Positions 3,131 to 32,000 of a stretch of DNA of 32,000 nt are shown piece after piece. The translations under genes and the position numbers were made by a program. The stretch's first letter is position 1. Each line of letters begins with the position of its first letter. Below the pieces are notes generated by a model. It saw nothing but the letters and a program-made list of their open reading frames with translations, searched no databases and was not told where the DNA came from. The DNA lies in NCBI GenBank assembly GCA_031387975.1, contig JANNDV010000034.1:1-32000 (forward strand), read 5' to 3'. This DNA comes from Acaryochloridaceae cyanobacterium OTE_75_metabat_521 (GTDB lineage: Bacteria > Cyanobacteriota > Cyanobacteriia > Thermosynechococcales > Thermosynechococcaceae).

Positions 3131-4225
3131 TCACGCAAGAATAAGCTCGAGATTCTTGCCGACATCAATATTAATAGTGTCCGATGTAGATACACCCAAT
3201 AGCGAATCTTTCACGCACTTTGCGACAACATTTGCAAGTCTACATGGCACTGCATTTCCAATCTGTGAATACACATTACTGCTTGATCCACAGAATATGT
3301 AGCTGGAAGGAAAAGTCTGAAGCAATGCAGCTTCATTGATTGTGAGTCGTCTTAAATATGAAGGAGCATCATGCATACCCTGAGGTTTACCCCCCGCCAT
3401 TAAGTGCCGATGGTATTCTTCAACCCATGCTGCACCACCATAATACAAATGGTTATTATCTATAATGGGCGTTCTATTTCCCCCCATACTTGCAGGTAAA
3501 GTACTCGCCCACCCATCTGGATTAAGTGGCCTACCTTGTCCATTGAATAACATACCAGCATAAGGAGATTTTCTCAGCACTGGTTTCACGGCGAGCGTAA
3601 CTTTTGCATTGCAAACTCGGTCATTACCTTTCGTACCTGGCTTGCCTAAAGGTATCAATATATCCCGTAGAGTCGGCGCTAATTTTTTGTGTTCTTGAAA
3701 ACTCGACGAAAAAATAGGTTTGAACTGATTTTTTAATCCGATAAAAAATACCCTCTCACGAGACTGAGGTACTCCAAAGTCCTTTGCATTAAGAATGTGT
3801 ATAGAAACGTTGTAACCAGCCCTCTGAAAGCGTGACATGAGGACAGCACGAATCCTTTCAAATTTGGCAAGTGAGCCAAGCGCTTTTACATTTTCCATAA
3901 CGAATGCTTTTGGTTGAATAAGCTCAACCATCGAACAGAAGCTAAAAATCAGTTTACTTCTAGGATCATCAGGGTTCATCTTACCTGCCACAGAAAACCC
4001 TTGGCAGGGAGGTCCTCCAAGAACCACATCCACCCCCTCAAAAGCGCTAAACTCGGCTCCGCACTCGTCAATATCACCTTCAAAAAGAACTGTCTCAGGA
4101 TGGTTAGCACGAAATGTATCACAAGCGTGCTTGTCTATCTCGTTTGCAGCGATGATTTCAAAGCCAGCAGCTTTGAACCCTACATCCATTCCGCCTGCAC
4201 CACTAAACAGAGAAACAGCCTTCAT
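3131..4225 (-). CDS. DNA (cytosine-5)-methyltransferase
   Basis: 364-aa ORF with the conserved m5C-MTase motifs in canonical order: I (LFSGAGGMDVGF), IV (GGPPCQGFSVAG), VI (ENV), VIII (QSRERVFFIG), IX (RRLTINEAALLQTFP), X (GNAVP). A variable target-recognition region lies between VIII and IX. Confidence 0.95.
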   Translation of the reverse strand: MKAVSLFSGAGGMDVGFKAAGFEIIAANEIDKHACDTFRANHPETVLFEGDIDECGAEFSAFEGVDVVLGGPPCQGFSVAGKMNPDDPRSKLIFSFCSMVELIQPKAFVMENVKALGSLAKFERIRAVLMSRFQRAGYNVSIHILNAKDFGVPQSRERVFFIGLKNQFKPIFSSSFQEHKKLAPTLRDILIPLGKPGTKGNDRVCNAKVTLAVKPVLRKSPYAGMLFNGQGRPLNPDGWASTLPASMGGNRTPIIDNNHLYYGGAAWVEEYHRHLMAGGKPQGMHDAPSYLRRLTINEAALLQTFPSSYIFCGSSSNVYSQIGNAVPCRLANVVAKCVKDSLLGVSTSDTINIDVGKNLELILA

Positions 4226-4295: not shown

Positions 4296-4565
4296 ATGCA
4301 AGTCATGAATAAAAATAAAACAATCCACGATAAGCGCTATCGGTCGCTAATAACTGAACTCGCAAAAGAGCGAATTCGGCTCAGCATTTCACAAGGTGAA
4401 CTCGCAATTCATATTGGTTTGAACCAATCTGATGTTTCTAAGATTGAAAAATTTGAAAAGCGCTTAGATATACTCGAATTTTCTATGATCTTGGAAGCGC
4501 TTCGCATCGACGAAAATATTCGACTTCAGCATATCGTTAAAGAATTTACGGGAATTCCAGAATGA
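4296..4565 (+). CDS. XRE-family helix-turn-helix protein, probable R-M controller (C) protein
   Basis: 89-aa ORF with an HTH segment (LSISQGELAIHIGLNQSDVSKIEK). It is divergent from the MTase, and its stop overlaps the start of the downstream ORF (ATGA at 4562-4565), the classic C-R arrangement. An alternative ATG lies at 4305. Confidence 0.75.
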   Translation: MQVMNKNKTIHDKRYRSLITELAKERIRLSISQGELAIHIGLNQSDVSKIEKFEKRLDILEFSMILEALRIDENIRLQHIVKEFTGIPE

Positions 4566-5650
4566 ATAGTGTTGCCAAACGGAACAGCTCTGGCCAATAC
4601 TATGTGAATACAAGACTGGGCGTAGCAAAAACTAAAAGTTCAGAGGATTTCCCTGAATTCGACTCTTCTACCGAGGTTTACAAACTACTTACTGAGCTTA
4701 TAGAAGTGAATGCCAAAGGATTTCGTGGTGTAGTTGTCACTGCATTAACTGGATTGCACTTAGATGACAATTATGATCCGCTGAATAATTTTTACGGGTG
4801 TAGCCCACGGTCTATTTTTGAAGGTGGTATTTGGTATGCACTTCAAGATAACGGCATTCCTTGCGGCAAGTCGGATCCCCTCAATGTGGCAAAAAATGCC
4901 AATCAATTAAACGAGGACTGGGCAAAGGGTCGGCGGCCTCAATCAGCGGCAATGGCAGTGGTAAAATTTCTCAATATCGTAATGCAGTTGGGAAAGGCAA
5001 AAAGAGCAAAGTTAATCGACTATTTCTTTTTTCGCCTTTGGAAATATGCCGAAAGTGTAACAGGCTATCAGCTTGCTGAAATCAAATCATCGTCCGAGTC
5101 GAGGCAGACTTTAGGCAATAAACTCATAGCATTTACTCTCAAATATCCAGAGTCTGGCAACCTCCCTCAATTTCTTGTTTCGCAGTTCTTGTCTGGCGTA
5201 TTCCGTACCTCTGCGATAGATGTAGCGGGAGGGAGCGAAAGTGTTTTCGGAACAAATACTACATCCAAAAAGCCTGCTGACTTATGGCTTGAGATTGATG
5301 GACTAGAGACTAATTTATATGAGATTACCGTCAAGCCAGTATCGAAGAAGAGGTTAGATGATAGTTTAGAGGCGCTCAGATCCACTGGTCATCTGGATAA
5401 CTCTGTGACGTTTATATGCAGGCTGCAAACTGACGTGGCGGAGCTTGATGTTATGGAAGGTAGCTGTATCTATAAGGGTAAACGCTTTGATTTTGTGGAT
5501 TATCAATCATTCTGTTGTTCTCTTTGTGCGTTGCTGAGCGACGAAGAATTTACTACGGTTTTAAATAATGTTGCAAATTTTGTTCAAGATATGCATATTT
5601 CAATGAAAACAAAAGCAGGTTGGAATGAGTTCTTTTCGACAGAGATCTAA
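4562..5650 (+). CDS. Candidate type II restriction endonuclease (family not recognised)
   Basis: 362-aa ORF translationally coupled to the C gene and next to the m5C MTase. It is AT-rich like its partners. Only a non-canonical PD...(D/E)XK-like stretch is visible (PAD-x13-EITVK, nt 5273-5335). The call rests on context. Confidence 0.5.
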   Translation: MNSVAKRNSSGQYYVNTRLGVAKTKSSEDFPEFDSSTEVYKLLTELIEVNAKGFRGVVVTALTGLHLDDNYDPLNNFYGCSPRSIFEGGIWYALQDNGIPCGKSDPLNVAKNANQLNEDWAKGRRPQSAAMAVVKFLNIVMQLGKAKRAKLIDYFFFRLWKYAESVTGYQLAEIKSSSESRQTLGNKLIAFTLKYPESGNLPQFLVSQFLSGVFRTSAIDVAGGSESVFGTNTTSKKPADLWLEIDGLETNLYEITVKPVSKKRLDDSLEALRSTGHLDNSVTFICRLQTDVAELDVMEGSCIYKGKRFDFVDYQSFCCSLCALLSDEEFTTVLNNVANFVQDMHISMKTKAGWNEFFSTEI

Positions 5651-25698: not shown

Positions 25699-26065
25699 AA
25701 CTGACAAGACGAAGTAAAAGGTCAAGCACAACAATACTCAATTATTTCATGCCTTAGCCTTTGTCCTCCAATGAACTTTGATTGTATAGATCCAAGTTGG
25801 ACTTTATAGCGTAGTCAGCTTACAGGGCAGATCATATACATCTCCAAGCGCGAAAGACAGGTCTCTGAGCAGGGTGGGTTACTTATTACTCGATAGGCTA
25901 GACACTCTACGCCGTCTTGAAGCTAAGCAACTGTACGCTGTCTGGAACTGAAGAATAAAGAATGTAGCGATGAAGGTTAACTCTAGAAAGAAGGCTTTAG
26001 TTATGAAACATAAAATCAAATTTTTCCTCAAAAACTTGAGGGACAAACAAGGTGCTTTTATAGAA

Positions 26066-27235
26066 ATGCTCTCTAAAAACCTTACAAATACTTTTCGTAG
26101 AGCGGCAATCTATGCCGTAGCTTTACTGGTATTCCTGACTTCTTCAATTCTTCCTGTCTCAGCATCAGATCATCAGGACACTACTTTTCTTGCGACTCAA
26201 ATGACATCTGCAGATTTAACCGATCTGTATGTGTTTGAAAGTCCTAGAAACCCGACACAAATGGTTCTAGCAATGGACTTTGACCCCTTAATTGCTCGAG
26301 GTGAGGTGAGACCTTTTGACCCTGGTGTACTTTACCAATTCAAAATTGATAACACGGGAGATAACGTTGAAGACGTAGTGCTTCAATTTTTGGTCAATGG
26401 TCAAGGCAAAAATCAAACTGTTTCGGTATATGGCCCAGGTCGCCCCCTTCAAGTTGGCACCGAGTCAAGGCTGCTGAGAGAAGTGGGTAGAGGGCCAATT
26501 AACAGGACTTTTGCGCCTGGTGGCGCTTTGAAAGTTTTTGTGGGCGATCGCAAAGATCCGTTCTTTTTTGACCTAGAACAATTTTTCAAAATCCTGCCGG
26601 ATCGTAATTATTTAGTACAGCCCAATCCTAGCCCACCATTAACCGTTGTTTCATTTCGGCCACCTGGACAAGCAAAAGATACCCTTGCACCTTTTAATGT
26701 CCATTCAATTGTGGTTGAGCTGCCTAGAAGTCTTTTAGGCAGGGGGACAATTGGAGCTTGGATGACCACTAGTGTTCAGTCTCCCAAACAAAAGGAAGGC
26801 GTTTACTCGCAAATTGAGCGATTGGCAGTGCCAGCGCTGAATGAATTATTTATGAACTTCAAAGATCATAATGCCAGTAATCTTCAGACCCCAACCCAAG
26901 ATGCTTCAAACCAATCTGGGTTTATTCGCTCTTTTATTCAAACCATTGGGCGACCTAAAGGTATTGCTGATGCTGTGATATCTGTAGCTATCCCAGATGT
27001 TATTAAGGCTGACCTTTCAAAACAAAATGGTACCTACTTTGGTACGCAGCTAACCCAAAATTTTGGTGGCAGACGACCACAGGATGATGTCATTGATGTT
27101 ACGGCATCTGTTGTTTTTGGGGATGCCGTGACAGGCATTAAAGCTGGCGCAATTCCCGCGTTAACCAGCGATAATGTTGGGCCTAATAGGGCGAATTTTC
27201 GCGACACTTTTCCTTATTTAGGCGATCCGCTTTAA
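26066..27235 (+). CDS. Exported DUF4331-family protein
   Basis: A signal peptide (MLSKNLTNTFRRAAIYAVALLVFLTSSILPVSA|SDHQD) is followed by the DUF4331-type N-terminal signature as I remember it (S/A-D-H-x-D ... DLTDLYVF). In-frame upstream ATGs at 25970 and 26003 are also possible starts. Confidence 0.75.
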   Translation: MLSKNLTNTFRRAAIYAVALLVFLTSSILPVSASDHQDTTFLATQMTSADLTDLYVFESPRNPTQMVLAMDFDPLIARGEVRPFDPGVLYQFKIDNTGDNVEDVVLQFLVNGQGKNQTVSVYGPGRPLQVGTESRLLREVGRGPINRTFAPGGALKVFVGDRKDPFFFDLEQFFKILPDRNYLVQPNPSPPLTVVSFRPPGQAKDTLAPFNVHSIVVELPRSLLGRGTIGAWMTTSVQSPKQKEGVYSQIERLAVPALNELFMNFKDHNASNLQTPTQDASNQSGFIRSFIQTIGRPKGIADAVISVAIPDVIKADLSKQNGTYFGTQLTQNFGGRRPQDDVIDVTASVVFGDAVTGIKAGAIPALTSDNVGPNRANFRDTFPYLGDPL

Positions 27236-27240
27236 GACCT

Positions 27241-28626
27241 ATGAACTGGTACTGGCGAATACTGCGACCGTTATTAATTTTGGTCTGTCTTCTCTTGACC
27301 CTGGAGAATTCCCCTGCCTTAGCATTAACCGGCAAAGAATCATTCTCTGCGAGTCATATCCCAGTAGAAAAGGCTTCAGATCTGGTTTTTCCAGACTATT
27401 TACAGCGTTCCAAAATTATTAGCACCTATGAAGCAGAAATTCGTCAGTCTCCTGACTCCTCTTTGCTTTTGCGATTGCTAGCAGGGCAATACCTAAAGCG
27501 TTTTCGAGAACGTGCAGATGTTGAGGATTTATTGCGAACAGAGCAGGCATCTCGCCAAGCGCTCTCGCTTCAAAATTATCGAGATCGGTCATCTTCGATG
27601 ATTTTAGCCTCCACTCTATTGTCGCAGCATCGCTTTCAAGCGGCGCTGGAGGCGATCGCTGAGGCGCAGAAGTTTGCCCCTGATGATGTAAATCTTGCTG
27701 CTTTAAGCGCGTCGATTCAGATGGAGCTAGGGCGCTACGAAGCAACTCATGATCTGCTGCAAATGTTGACTCAGAACACAGAGGACTCAGGTCACAATGC
27801 AGTTCTCGCGCGTTACCTAGAGTTAACGGGGAACCTTGCCTCCGCACGGGATCTGATGAACTCAGCAATGCAGCAGATGGACGCATTTTATTCAAATTCA
27901 GCCGAAACCCGCGCCTGGTTTCATGTGCGGGCAGGGGATTTATCCTTTGCAGCAGGAGAACCAAATCTTGCTGAACAGCGCTATCACGAAGCCCTCAATC
28001 TCTTTCCTCAAGATATTGCTGCTTTTACAGGACTCGCTCGGCTCTACACCGCCCAACACCGTTGGCAAGAAGCCTTAGATGTCGCCAATCGCGGCATTGA
28101 GTGGGTGCCGTTACTAGAAACGCTGGCCTACAAAGCCGATGCCCAAACAGCATTGGGAGATTCTGAAGGGGTACTTGAAACTGAGGGTCTTATGGAGGTG
28201 GTGGCGCATTTGAGTAAGGTTCAGGGCATCTATGACCGAGCGTTAGCTGTTTACTACGTCGATCATGGCATTCACATCCCTGAGGCGCTTGAGATTGCAC
28301 GACGAGAGGTATCGGTGAGAGACGATATTTATGCAGAAGATACATTGGCTTGGGCTGCGGCAGCTAACCATCACTGGAAAGAAGCGCAGCAAGCGGCAAA
28401 ACGCGCCACTCGGCTGGGGACAGAAGATGCCCTAATTCTGTTTCATAGCGGCATGATTGCGCTCAACTGCGGTGATCGCCCCTCAGCCTTTCGTCATTTA
28501 ACCCAAGCCCTGAAGCTGAACCCTATATTCCATCATCGGTATGCAGAAGAAGCCCGTCAAGCATTGTCGAGCCTAGCTTCAGCCTTCGTTCAACCTAACC
28601 GCTCAATATCTTCTTATCATTCCTGA
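27241..28626 (+). CDS. Signal-anchored tetratricopeptide-repeat (TPR) protein
   Basis: 461-aa ORF starting 5 bp after the DUF4331 stop. It has a hydrophobic N-terminus (LLILVCLLLTLENSPALA) and repeated TPR-like helical pairs (e.g. AEQRYHEALNLFPQDIAAFTGLARLYTAQHRWQEALDVANRGI and SAFRHLTQALKLNP). Confidence 0.8.
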   Translation: MNWYWRILRPLLILVCLLLTLENSPALALTGKESFSASHIPVEKASDLVFPDYLQRSKIISTYEAEIRQSPDSSLLLRLLAGQYLKRFRERADVEDLLRTEQASRQALSLQNYRDRSSSMILASTLLSQHRFQAALEAIAEAQKFAPDDVNLAALSASIQMELGRYEATHDLLQMLTQNTEDSGHNAVLARYLELTGNLASARDLMNSAMQQMDAFYSNSAETRAWFHVRAGDLSFAAGEPNLAEQRYHEALNLFPQDIAAFTGLARLYTAQHRWQEALDVANRGIEWVPLLETLAYKADAQTALGDSEGVLETEGLMEVVAHLSKVQGIYDRALAVYYVDHGIHIPEALEIARREVSVRDDIYAEDTLAWAAAANHHWKEAQQAAKRATRLGTEDALILFHSGMIALNCGDRPSAFRHLTQALKLNPIFHHRYAEEARQALSSLASAFVQPNRSISSYHS

Positions 28627-28645
28627 TCAGAGTGACAACTCCACT

Positions 28646-30250
28646 ATGAGAATTCTGCTGCACAGCTCTACCTGGATTATCTTTTTTACGGCTTTATTGG
28701 GGCTTTGGATGCCGTTTGCCGAGGCTCATCCTTTGGGTAATTTCACCATTAATCAGTACTCAGGGCTACAGGTTTCCCGTGAGGGTTTAGGCGTTGACTA
28801 TGTGCTGGATATGGCTGAAATCCCTGCCTTTCAGGCCATAAACCGGATGGACATCAATCATAACCGTAAGCCTGACCCAGCCGAAATCATCGGTTATCCC
28901 GAAGCTAAATGTAGCGAAGTCGTCTCCAATCTCAGCCTAAAAATTGATCGGCAGCCACTGCCGCTTTCGGTAAAACGCTCAATCGTCGAATTTCCGCCGG
29001 GTGTCGGCGGATTAGCCACGTTGCGCCTTACCTGCGCCTTAGAAGGCAAAACGTCTGTCGTTGGCACCCATCAAAGGATTGAATTTGAAAACAAGCTTTA
29101 CCCTGAGCGTCTGGGTTGGCAAGAGATTACCGCTGTGGCGAAAGATGTCTCCATTCAAGGAGACTTTAAGACCGAGAGCATTACAAAGCGTCTAACCAAC
29201 TATCCCACCGATCTTCTGAGCAGCCCTCTCAACCAGCGTCAGCTTTCTCTTAACGTTAATCGACCTCAGACCCTGAGCCTAGAAAAGAAATTTGCTCCAG
29301 AATCGTCTGGCGTTTGGGGCTTTGCATTATTAGATCGGGGCAACAATGCGTTTACAAGCTTAGTGACGCAAGATCACCTCACGGCTTCAACGGTTTTGAT
29401 TGCGCTGCTCACTGCCTTTATCTGGGGCGGGTTTCATGCTTTGTCTCCAGGGCACGGTAAGACCATTGTTGGCAGTTATTTAGTAGGTTCTCGAGGCACC
29501 ATTAAACACGCTCTTTTCCTAGGGCTGACGGTGACAATTACTCATACGGCTGGCATTTTTACGTTGGGTTTAGTGATGTTAAGCACCTCTCGATTTATTT
29601 TAACAGAGCAGCTTTATCCCTGGCTAAGTTTACTGTCAGGTTTATTAGTAACGGGGATTGGTTTAAACCTTTTAATCGGTCGATTGAAAGGTTCCCAAAT
29701 TTTTCAGAACTGGATCTTAATGAAGAGGACAGCTAAGCGTGAGTTGGCTTTTTCTTCTCAACCTATGGCTTTAGTTCACAGTCATCAATCAGTCGTCAAA
29801 ATTGCTGATTCTACTCACAGTCACAATCACCATCATGAGCACAATTACCATAGTCACAGGCATCATCACTCTGAACATGAAAATCGCCACAAACATCACT
29901 CCCATCTGCCGCCACTAGGCGCGGATGAAACTCCCGTCACTTGGTCTAGTCTGTTAGCCCTAGGGATTTCAGGAGGACTATTGCCTTGTCCTTCAGCGTT
30001 GGTGGTTTTGCTAAGTGCGATCGCCTTAGGCCGCACTGGCTTCGGCCTGTTACTGGTGTCTGCTTTTAGCCTAGGACTTGCTGGGGTTCTGACTGGAATT
30101 GGCGTACTTCTAATCTACGCTAAAAAGCAATTTGAGCAGATGCCGCTTCAGCTTCCTGGAAGCACCCTGTTCCCTTCTATCAGTGCTCTATGCATCACTT
30201 TACTGGGCATAGGAATAGCTGTGAATGCGATCCCTGTCGCTATTTTTTAG
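28646..30250 (+). CDS. RcnA/NicO-family metal (Ni/Co-type) permease fused to an N-terminal extracytoplasmic domain, with a His-rich loop
   Basis: 534-aa ORF starting 19 bp after the TPR stop. It has a signal peptide (MPFAEA|HPLGNF) and a soluble domain of about 250 aa. The membrane core shares motifs I recall from E. coli RcnA: FHALSPGHGKT, GTIKHAL, TITHTAG, a His-rich loop (THSHNHHHEHNYHSHRHHHSEHENRHKHHSH, nt 29777-29905 including flanks) and GGLLPCPSALVVLL. Confidence 0.8.
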   Translation: MRILLHSSTWIIFFTALLGLWMPFAEAHPLGNFTINQYSGLQVSREGLGVDYVLDMAEIPAFQAINRMDINHNRKPDPAEIIGYPEAKCSEVVSNLSLKIDRQPLPLSVKRSIVEFPPGVGGLATLRLTCALEGKTSVVGTHQRIEFENKLYPERLGWQEITAVAKDVSIQGDFKTESITKRLTNYPTDLLSSPLNQRQLSLNVNRPQTLSLEKKFAPESSGVWGFALLDRGNNAFTSLVTQDHLTASTVLIALLTAFIWGGFHALSPGHGKTIVGSYLVGSRGTIKHALFLGLTVTITHTAGIFTLGLVMLSTSRFILTEQLYPWLSLLSGLLVTGIGLNLLIGRLKGSQIFQNWILMKRTAKRELAFSSQPMALVHSHQSVVKIADSTHSHNHHHEHNYHSHRHHHSEHENRHKHHSHLPPLGADETPVTWSSLLALGISGGLLPCPSALVVLLSAIALGRTGFGLLLVSAFSLGLAGVLTGIGVLLIYAKKQFEQMPLQLPGSTLFPSISALCITLLGIGIAVNAIPVAIF

Positions 30251-30576: not shown

Positions 30577-32000
30577 ATGAAAAAATCATTTTTGTTGGCT
30601 GCAACCTTAAGTTCTCTGGGTTTTATGGCGCTAGGGCTTCCTGCATTAGCCGCAGCGCTTAGTCCTGACCCTCAGTTCATGTCTGCATCAGAGCAGGATG
30701 CGGACATCGCTCAGGTTACATCCGTGTCTCAGCTTTCCGACGTTCAGCCCACTGACTGGGCTTTTCAGGCACTTCAGTCTTTAGTTGAGCGCTACGGCTG
30801 TATTGCAGGGTATCCTGACGGCACCTTTCGAGGTAATCGTGCAGCGACCCGCTACGAATTAGCGGCGGCGCTCAATGCCTGCTTAGACCAAATTAGCGAT
30901 CGCTTTGCCACTAAAGAAGACTTGGCAACCGTCAAGGCTTTACAAGAAGAATTTAAAACAGAACTCGCCACCCTCAAGGGTCGCGTGGATGGCCTCGAAG
31001 CCCGCACCAAGACCCTCGAAGCGCAGCAGTTTTCAACAACCACTAAACTTCAGGGGGAAGTGGTGATGGCAGTTCAGTATGGTGGCGACACCGTTGATAC
31101 GCGCTTTGGTGCCCCGATCAAGGTGGATAGCCGCGCCACGGCGATCTCCCGAGTTCGCCTCAACTTCAACACCAGTTTTAGCGGCAGTGATCTGCTGCAA
31201 ACTCAGCTTGAAGTGGGCAATGGCGGCAGCGACCTATTTGGTGCGAGAGACGGTAATGGCAACCGTATTCTGACCGACGATGGCAGATCGCAAACAGGTT
31301 CTGCCCTGTATGACAGCGGTATTATTGACTATGCTGGTGTCCCCAGTACCGTAACGCTGCGACGCTTAGCGTACTCTTTTAAGCCATCCAAAAATCTGAC
31401 GCTCACTATTGGTTCGCGCCTGTTTCCAAGCGATTTTGTTGACTTCAACAGCTATGCTAATAACTCAGCCCAAGATTTTAGCTCTGGCTTCTTCATCAAT
31501 AATCCTCTCATCATCAACAATCTAGTTGACGGCCCTGGCGGCGCAGGAGCCGCAGTAGATTGGAAATTTGGCGGCGGCCCTCTTAGCTTCCGTGCCGCCT
31601 ATGTCGCTGCAAGCCCAACCAATTCTGTCGCGGCACCCTTAAGCTTTGGCGGTGGACTTTTTGGCGACCCCTATCAAGCAACGGCTGAAGTGGAGTACGC
31701 GAAGACCTTTGGCGCTAGCAAGAAAAACAATTTTGCTGTACGACTGCAATACACGCGCTCTTCCACCGAAGATTTCCATCAAAACGTCGTTGGCGTTAAT
31801 ACAGAACTCACTTTTGGTCGGTTTGGGGTATTTGGTAGAGCTGGCTATTCTATCGACCCACAGTTCATCAATGTTAGTGCGGGTAACATCATTACAAACG
31901 TTCCCATCGGCAAAAAAACGGATTACTTTTTGACCTGGCAAGCAGGCATTGGCATCAAGGATGTCTTTCTTCCTGGCTCTCTCTTTGCAGTGGCTGCAGG
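30577..32000 (+). CDS. SLH-domain / OprB-family outer-membrane porin (3' end truncated by the window)
   Basis: This ORF is not in the supplied track because it is open to the window end. My translation from ATG 30577 has no stop. It shows a signal peptide (MKKSFLLAATLSSLGFMALGLPALAAA), an SLH motif (VQPTDWAFQALQSLVERYGCIAGYPDGTFRGNRAATRYELAAALNACL), a coiled coil (LQEEFKTELATLKGRVDGLEARTKTLEAQQFSTTTKL) and beta-barrel-like alternating sequence (RLNFNTSFSG, LRRLAYSFKPS, AVRLQYTRS). Confidence 0.85.
   Translation, partial: MKKSFLLAATLSSLGFMALGLPALAAALSPDPQFMSASEQDADIAQVTSVSQLSDVQPTDWAFQALQSLVERYGCIAGYPDGTFRGNRAATRYELAAALNACLDQISDRFATKEDLATVKALQEEFKTELATLKGRVDGLEARTKTLEAQQFSTTTKLQGEVVMAVQYGGDTVDTRFGAPIKVDSRATAISRVRLNFNTSFSGSDLLQTQLEVGNGGSDLFGARDGNGNRILTDDGRSQTGSALYDSGIIDYAGVPSTVTLRRLAYSFKPSKNLTLTIGSRLFPSDFVDFNSYANNSAQDFSSGFFINNPLIINNLVDGPGGAGAAVDWKFGGGPLSFRAAYVAASPTNSVAAPLSFGGGLFGDPYQATAEVEYAKTFGASKKNNFAVRLQYTRSSTEDFHQNVVGVNTELTFGRFGVFGRAGYSIDPQFINVSAGNIITNVPIGKKTDYFLTWQAGIGIKDVFLPGSLFAVAA

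Follow-up and report, generated by a model that had tools for sequence, protein, structure and literature searches.

A very widespread DUF4331-TPR-permease operon as an uncharacterised metal-handling module of the bacterial envelope

Anglerases, described by Franco Cairo et al. (Nat Commun 2025; PMC12537917), consist of a signal peptide, an N-terminal histidine (His1) and an Ig-like sandwich fused to HupE/UreJ-2, and their proposed role is to fish for metal ions, which are then passed to the channel. Ang-1 binds Cu2+ at 74 nM and Ni2+ at 220 nM, and Cu2+ is the ion bound most tightly by Ang-1 as well as by Ang-2 (PMC12537917). Two other proteins, ZrgA and PA4063, are beta-sandwich zinc binders of the periplasm that serve a Zur-regulated importer (PMC9820375). 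In this work we analysed a stretch of 32,000 nucleotides (positions 1 to 32,000 of contig JANNDV010000034.1, assembly GCA_031387975.1; hereafter the window) from the Acaryochloridaceae cyanobacterium OTE_75_metabat_521 and concentrated on an operon of three genes, encoding in order an exported DUF4331 protein, a tetratricopeptide repeat (TPR) protein and a NicO-family permease. Our results indicate that this operon is an uncharacterised and very widespread metal-handling module of the envelope. It is very probable that the module transports metal with the help of extracytoplasmic metal-binding accessories.

The three genes lie on the forward strand at 25970-27235 (gene 1, 421 aa), 27241-28626 (gene 2, 461 aa) and 28646-30250 (gene 3, 534 aa), and the gaps between them are 5 and 19 bp, in agreement with an earlier reading made from the DNA letters (the sequence-only reading). 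Each product starts with a hydrophobic segment and a small-x-small site (VSA↓SDH, ALA↓LTG and AEA↓HPL, with the arrow at the predicted cleavage position), so the signal or anchor sequences claimed there are indeed present; cleavage was judged in all families by the −3/−1 rule alone. Profile searches against Pfam also bore out the three family assignments. Gene 1 matches DUF4331 (PF14224) with 231.7 bits against a gathering threshold of 27 (E 2.5e-68), gene 2 scores above cut-off with TPR_2 (54.4 bits, cut-off 27), TPR_19 (37.8) and TPR_14 (36.5), and the transmembrane domain of gene 3 matches NicO (PF03824) with 64.4 bits against 27.7. Exact-sequence look-ups of the window proteins gave no match, and sequence searches of the three proteins against the PDB gave no informative relative. 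Promoter and terminator scans performed no better than on shuffled sequences, and the case for co-transcription is therefore made by spacing and synteny.

Gene order is conserved far outside the cyanobacteria. A scan centred on gene 3, made with a profile of its relatives and one genome per GTDB species, gave at least 593 confirmed loci, and 80 of these were kept, from Actinomycetota (many Streptomyces, and Acidimicrobiia), Chloroflexota, Acidobacteriota and Cyanobacteria. Upstream sequence was sufficient in 62 loci, and in 54 of these, across four phyla, DUF4331, TPR and permease genes follow each other on one strand; three further loci contain the same genes in another order. In a second scan, centred on DUF4331 and made on metagenome contigs, all close cyanobacterial contigs long enough for three genes have the triad. 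Nostoc sp. C052 carries it as well. The cross-phylum order, the cyanobacterial contigs and the Nostoc genome support the triad as a conserved functional unit, and its synteny thus extends well beyond the cyanobacteria and actinobacteria that the sequence-only reading had in mind.

Within the triad, the first two genes are the more constant part. In both scans, nearly every locus has a family-specific TPR orthologue immediately 3' of DUF4331, and gene 2 is thus a dedicated partner of DUF4331. Among distant DUF4331 genes the TPR gene is almost always directly downstream, and NicO is not kept. The third gene is then CbiM with PDGLE and CbiQ (L103, L104; loci are numbered L001 onwards), HupE_UreJ_2 with an N-terminal signal peptide-His1 domain as a fusion (L117, L118, L125) or a TonB-dependent receptor (L142); CbiM also adjoins gene-3 homologues (L008, L041). 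The DUF4331 protein of the window is 46-50% identical to the CbiM- and HupE-linked DUF4331 proteins and 23-26% identical to those of a NicO-linked clade with the N-terminal motif SSHREAP. Since gene 3 in turn is 47% identical to an Anaerolinea protein, the partners must have been reshuffled. The DUF4331-TPR pair is an invariant core that is joined to different metal transporters. CbiM-type energy-coupling factor (ECF) transporters, HupE/UreJ and TonB-dependent receptors are importers. Because the DUF4331-TPR pair partners with importers, we favour uptake as the function of the module, and because all permease families involved are associated with nickel and cobalt, we favour these two metals.

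What could the exported DUF4331 protein contribute? The start of gene 1 is ambiguous, with in-frame ATG codons at 25970, 26003 and 26066; MKVN at 25970 aligns with MRIN of orthologues, and the 410-aa form at NCBI begins at 26003. Ahead of the hydrophobic signal segment, DUF4331 proteins of cyanobacteria carry a basic N-terminal extension that is unusually long, at about 40 residues (25970-26101 in the window). As read from the sequence, the segment itself covers A45-A65 and ends in V-S-A (26102-26164), and the predicted mature protein starts with S66-D67-H68 (26165-26173), where His68 is conserved in 69/69 sequences. Among 127 distinct DUF4331 N-termini, 124 would start with X-X-His after cleavage by the −3/−1 rule, and in all DUF4331 proteins examined the signal peptide is directly followed by SSHREAP, ASHREAP, SDHQDT, SDHADTP or ADHxDAP. 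A free N-terminus with histidine at position 3 is the amino-terminal Cu(II)- and Ni(II)-binding (ATCUN) motif. The triplets SSH, ASH, SDH and ADH, with a residue other than proline at position 2, fit this pattern in all DUF4331 proteins examined, the cleavage site being a predicted one. If cleaved as predicted, the processed N-terminus of DUF4331 would be an ATCUN-type site for Cu(II) or Ni(II).

Two variations of DUF4331 were seen outside the cyanobacteria. In many lineages it is encoded by two adjacent genes (L102 475-1242 and 1270-1836; L117 5761-6654 and 6464-7219; L149 5836-6645 and 6629-7438), where the N-half has the signal peptide and X-X-His and the C-half a lipoprotein-type signal of its own (LSGC in L102). 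A frameshift was considered for these distant genes and rejected in favour of a natural two-gene split. Such a split, with a separate lipoprotein-type signal on the second half, suggests that DUF4331 consists of two modules, one of which can be anchored in the membrane. In Streptomyces, the DUF4331 signal peptides (L011, L015, L022 and others) contain twin arginines (RRSLA...), and it is a possibility that this protein is exported by the twin-arginine translocation pathway in a folded and perhaps pre-metallated form.

Gene 3 resembles a described system. Its signal peptide (residues 1-27, 28646-28726) ends in A-E-A, and it is followed by a separate periplasmic domain of about 220 aa (residues 28-245, 28727-29380) that went unnoticed in the sequence-only reading, opens with His28 (HPLGNFTIN), is predicted to be an anglerase-like beta-sandwich and matches no Pfam family. 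An exhaustive search with this N-domain alone gave 2393 clusters at 50% identity (E up to 1e-3). Among the top 150 cluster representatives, about 143 have a match that starts right after the signal peptide, A↓HPLGNFT(I/V)N, and most run on into a PGHGK-type permease. In the gene-3 family a small-x-small site precedes the histidine in 89 of 90 distinct N-termini (A-x-A in 79), and H28, D55, E58 and E160 of the domain are invariant across phyla. In the AlphaFold2 model of gene 3, with an overall predicted local distance difference test (pLDDT) value of 60.4, 10-residue blocks between residues 31 and 170 average 70-92. The modelled strands at 35-44, 48-57 and 96-100 and helices at 59-68, 78-81 and 84-94 place three helices between strands 2 and 3. 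The best Foldseek match of the modelled N-domain in the PDB is 9gce, Cu-bound Ang-1 (E 7.4e-5, probability 1.0, target TM 0.48), and ranks 2 and 3 are taken by PA4063 and ZrgA, which are zinc-binding uptake proteins. The modelled fold thus lends support to metal capture by this domain. Most non-cyanobacterial homologues have a canonical EF-hand-like loop, D-x-D-G-D-G-x5-E, in the helical insert of the N-domain; in the window this loop is degenerate (DINHNRKPDPAE, 28847-28885, gene 3 residues 68-80).

Gene 3 shares with anglerases a signal peptide followed by a conserved His1 (after predicted cleavage), a modelled Ig-like beta-sandwich in which helices separate strands 2 and 3, the N-terminal fusion to a multi-helix permease, and a proposed role in catching metal for that permease. 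It differs from them in that the permease is of the NicO/RcnA type (PF03824) and not HupE_UreJ_2 (PF13795), which is not among the gene 3 Pfam matches at E up to 0.01. The domain is also longer, has no detectable sequence similarity to that of anglerases and comes with dedicated DUF4331 and TPR partners. The likeness to anglerases is one of architecture and modelled fold only. ZrgA and PA4063 are more distant in design, being free-standing proteins of ABC-type transporters that bind zinc by internal His/Glu residues and His-rich loops and not by an N-terminal histidine. ZrgE is not NicO-like; it is a small periplasmic protein.

The permease part of gene 3 (residues 253-518, 29402-30199) contains the core motifs HALSPGHGKT (264), GTIK (284), HTA (300) and GGLLPCP (443), as well as a loop with 16 histidines in 31 residues (390-420, 29813-29905), and both features were correctly reported in the sequence-only reading. 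The loop is predicted to be cytoplasmic because it is located after the third predicted transmembrane helix, and its His-rich columns are conserved across phyla. NiCoT/UreH-type permeases have an H-x4-D-H signature in an early transmembrane helix. Gene 3 has HALSPGHGKT instead. A permease with a NiCoT-like signature of this kind, HAxEADH (HAVEADH), does occur next to gene-3 homologues in Acidobacteriota and Chloroflexota, where this small NicO-related protein is encoded 3' of the homologue (L042 9501-10232; L052 9713-10498) or fused to it (L047 7800-10280; L074 7848-10313). This permease, CbiM beside gene-3 homologues and the conserved His-rich loop support both uptake and nickel or cobalt. 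A DsbD/CcdA-like thiol transport function, prompted by a DsbD_2 match and the PCP motif, was rejected, as the cysteine is replaced by serine outside cyanobacteria.

The same features of gene 3 invite an explanation in the opposite direction, namely that gene 3 exports nickel and cobalt from the cytoplasm in the manner of RcnA, the exported metal then being taken over or buffered by the N-domain, DUF4331 and the TPR protein, which together would play the part of RcnB or CusF on a larger scale. Like the E. coli RcnA/RcnB pair, the module combines a NicO-family protein, PGHGK and a His-rich loop after the third helix with an adjacent periplasmic accessory gene, and the best NCBIfam match of gene 3 is the Ni/Co efflux subfamily RcnA (NF007454). 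However, gene 3 scores 116.7 bits there, below the curated cut-off of 195, which is a correction to the RcnA/NicO-like naming in the sequence-only reading. RcnA has no periplasmic N-terminal domain, the accessories of the module are unrelated to RcnB, and the gene context points to uptake. The nearest fold relatives of the modelled N-domain all come from uptake systems, and the DUF4331-TPR pair, as said above, also joins importers. The comparison with RcnA/RcnB-type efflux is thus the weaker reading, and we consider efflux or resistance unlikely. Uptake is more likely than RcnA-like efflux; taken by itself, import has a somewhat better than even chance of being the direction of transport.

Regulation speaks to both directions. 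About 24 loci, spread over Actinomycetota, Chloroflexota, Acidobacteriota and a single cyanobacterial contig, have a gene for an extracytoplasmic function (also abbreviated ECF) sigma factor beside the module, and in about half of them it is accompanied by an RskA-type anti-sigma gene; examples on the reverse strand are L022 4029-4649 and 3214-4122, L049 5983-6618 and L095 5183-5785. Such pairs recall cnrYXH, which controls Ni/Co efflux, and this favours the export explanation. By analogy, the arrangement might belong to a resistance circuit like cnr or equally to an uptake circuit like Fec. Neither gene is present in the window, no regulator gene of any kind flanks the operon, and no metal-sensor gene occurs in the rest of the window. 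The absence of a regulator beside the operon, pointed out in the sequence-only reading, therefore holds for the window, but elsewhere the sigma/anti-sigma pair recurs. No NiCo riboswitch and no RcnR/CsoR-type gene lies nearby, which argues against efflux. In the intergenic region 5' of gene 1 (25735-25969, forward strand) no riboswitch or recognisable operator was found. Rfam scans at gathering thresholds and by E-value gave nothing or chance matches in the window and the leader, and no family reached threshold over 19 related loci, the CbiM-linked ones included; riboswitch control was rejected on these grounds. Upstream regions of the cyanobacterial orthologues have no shared palindrome, and their conservation is confined to a ribosome-binding site and a lineage-level signal.

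Copper or zinc could be the cargo of the same architecture, copper as in Ang-1/Ang-2 and YcnI/YcnJ, or zinc as in ZrgA/PA4063. Ang-1 and Ang-2 prefer Cu2+, ATCUN and His1 sites favour Cu(II) in general coordination chemistry, and PA4063 and ZrgA are zinc proteins. B. subtilis YcnI-YcnJ (CopC-CopD) is reported to have a similar logic, since a protein with an N-terminal histidine ('mono-histidine brace') passes copper to a permease that carries its own metal-binding domain, in a two-step relay for copper uptake outside the cytoplasm; it differs in its metal, in its unrelated folds and families (DUF1775, CopC, CopD) and in having no TPR partner. Against such a cargo, the permeases linked to DUF4331-TPR (NicO, HupE/UreJ, CbiM and the small HX4DH-like permease) belong to Ni/Co-associated families, and there are no copper or zinc homeostasis genes nearby. 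In the CbiMNQO/NikMNQO transporters it is the membrane component that binds the metal, through its processed N-terminus. The module resembles these systems in that CbiM adjoins DUF4331-TPR or gene-3 homologues, as listed above; they differ from it as ATP-driven ECF transporters, and no CbiM is present in the window. We regard a cargo other than nickel with this architecture as rather doubtful. Nickel itself, named as the single cargo, falls just short of an even chance in our judgement, and cobalt or copper is possible.

The exported or anchored TPR protein (27241-28626) is otherwise variable, and it is important to note that His130 (codon 27628-27630) is present in 86/86 sequences across phyla and Phe132 in 85/86. 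From this pattern of conservation, His130 and Phe132 may form a functional site. TPR factors act in cytochrome c and photosystem assembly, and the invariant histidine is compatible with a different explanation of the whole locus, in which DUF4331 is a client (an exported metalloenzyme or a store of metal) that the TPR protein helps to assemble as a chaperone, and the neighbouring transporter merely serves the same metal economy. It agrees with this kind of periplasmic metalloprotein maturation that DUF4331 is the most conserved protein of the three (70-91% identity in cyanobacteria), that many of its Asp, His and Arg residues are invariant, and that the DUF4331-TPR pair persists without an adjoining permease. 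However, DUF4331 gave no relative among solved structures by sequence or fold and no match to a catalytic family, and in most lineages examined the third gene is some metal transporter, which fits a transport accessory better. Maturation seems quite improbable to us.

Based on these results we propose the following chain for nickel uptake. After removal of its signal peptide, the exported DUF4331 protein would expose NH2-X-X-His and bind Ni(II) or Cu(II), and the TPR protein would serve as a scaffold, probably bridging DUF4331 to the transporter. His1 of gene 3, made by signal-peptide cleavage, would take the metal in the beta-sandwich domain. From this N-domain it would move into the six-helix channel of the NicO type, and inside the cell the His-rich loop, predicted to be cytoplasmic, would receive it. 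Gene order, domains, motifs, synteny across phyla and the exchange of partners are observations here, and the cleavage sites, metal binding, transfer between the proteins, direction and metal are predictions. Taken as a whole, this chain of metal capture and nickel uptake stands at about even chances in our estimation. Several observations weigh against it, in addition to the RcnA-type PGHGK motif and the curated efflux subfamily as best, sub-threshold match. Importer partners were found in few loci (CbiM directly after TPR in 2, HupE/UreJ-2 in 3-4 and a TonB-dependent receptor in 1), and marine Bacteroidota-like DUF4331-TPR loci have no adjoining permease. The AlphaFold2 models, at pLDDT 60-63, are of moderate quality, and they render His28 itself poorly. 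A profile of the N-domain matched no PDB chain, 9gce included, and hhalign of the N-domain with the HupE-linked N-domains gave a probability of 1% and thus no sequence relation. About a dozen Asp residues of DUF4331 are invariant, which may indicate that the protein binds a hard cation or acts as an enzyme. Finally, the window contains no gene for a nickel-dependent enzyme or a metal regulator.

The chain can be extended to a more general proposal. DUF4331 and TPR would then be an unrecognised, phylum-spanning pair of extracytoplasmic metallochaperones that captures nickel or copper by an ATCUN-type site and serves importers of at least four unrelated classes (anglerase-like NicO, anglerase-HupE/UreJ-2, CbiM ECF and TonB-dependent receptors), defining a missing high-affinity nickel route in filamentous cyanobacteria, Streptomyces, Chloroflexota and Acidobacteriota. 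We put this forward as a speculative idea that is more probably wrong than right.

Regarding the surroundings of the operon, the genes on its 5' side are UPF0047, an 86-aa open reading frame (ORF), pirin and hemC. Highly iterated palindrome (HIP1) sites are present in it at 26544, 27652 and 30017, a density close to that outside the operon, with 29 sites counted over the 32 kb of the window, which is consistent with the view of the sequence-only reading that the operon is resident. On the 3' side, an SLH-OprB porin gene (30577-32000, forward strand; PF04966, PF00395) runs off the window edge. The sequence-only reading had placed it directly after the operon and suggested a route from the outer membrane through the periplasm to the inner membrane, but the gap is 326 bp. 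Among the related loci, a porin next to the module was seen only in L097/L098 and L121. Since this adjacency is not conserved across loci, the porin was rejected as a component of the system and is probably outside the module. Nostocales-type loci have, directly 3' of gene 3, a protein of 230-244 aa with a PEP-CTERM-like C-terminus and no Pfam family (coordinates of such proteins: L001 11534-12268; L073 9495-10184; L071 4700-4927), where the window has the porin gene. At the window start there is a putative Uma2-family restriction endonuclease, and a C-5 cytosine DNA methylase adjoins a 362-aa ORF without Pfam family; these genes, at 26-808, 3131-4225 on the reverse strand and 4562-5650, may form a restriction-modification locus.

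The module is not categorically new, as it is a metal transport system and the 2025 anglerase concept anticipates a fused capture domain. Its new elements are a NicO-type permease that bears such a domain, the dedicated pair of DUF4331 and TPR with X-X-His, and the combination of this pair with several importer classes; none of these is described in the literature searched. NicO and TPR are absent from the main text of the anglerase paper, and DUF4331 is found once, with a count of 2, in its supplementary neighbourhood table (PMC12537917). The sequence-only reading had taken DUF4331 to be without an established function, and in agreement with this no paper in the literature searched names DUF4331 or PF14224. 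DUF4331 and its dedicated TPR partner sit in a module of at least about 600 species-level genomes from major soil and freshwater phyla. According to a 2014 review of Ni/Co homeostasis in cyanobacteria (PMC4284471), these organisms lack NikR and Nur, which commonly regulate nickel import, and the only importers listed there are UreH/SodT, HupE and CbiMNQO-type systems. If our proposal is true, the module would be a new uptake route that bears on the metal supply of urease, NiFe hydrogenase and Ni-superoxide dismutase. The anglerase idea, so far tied to HupE/UreJ-2, would then reach a second permease superfamily as well, and a two-protein relay would be placed ahead of the permease, with simple and testable chemistry in the transfer of metal from X-X-His to His1.

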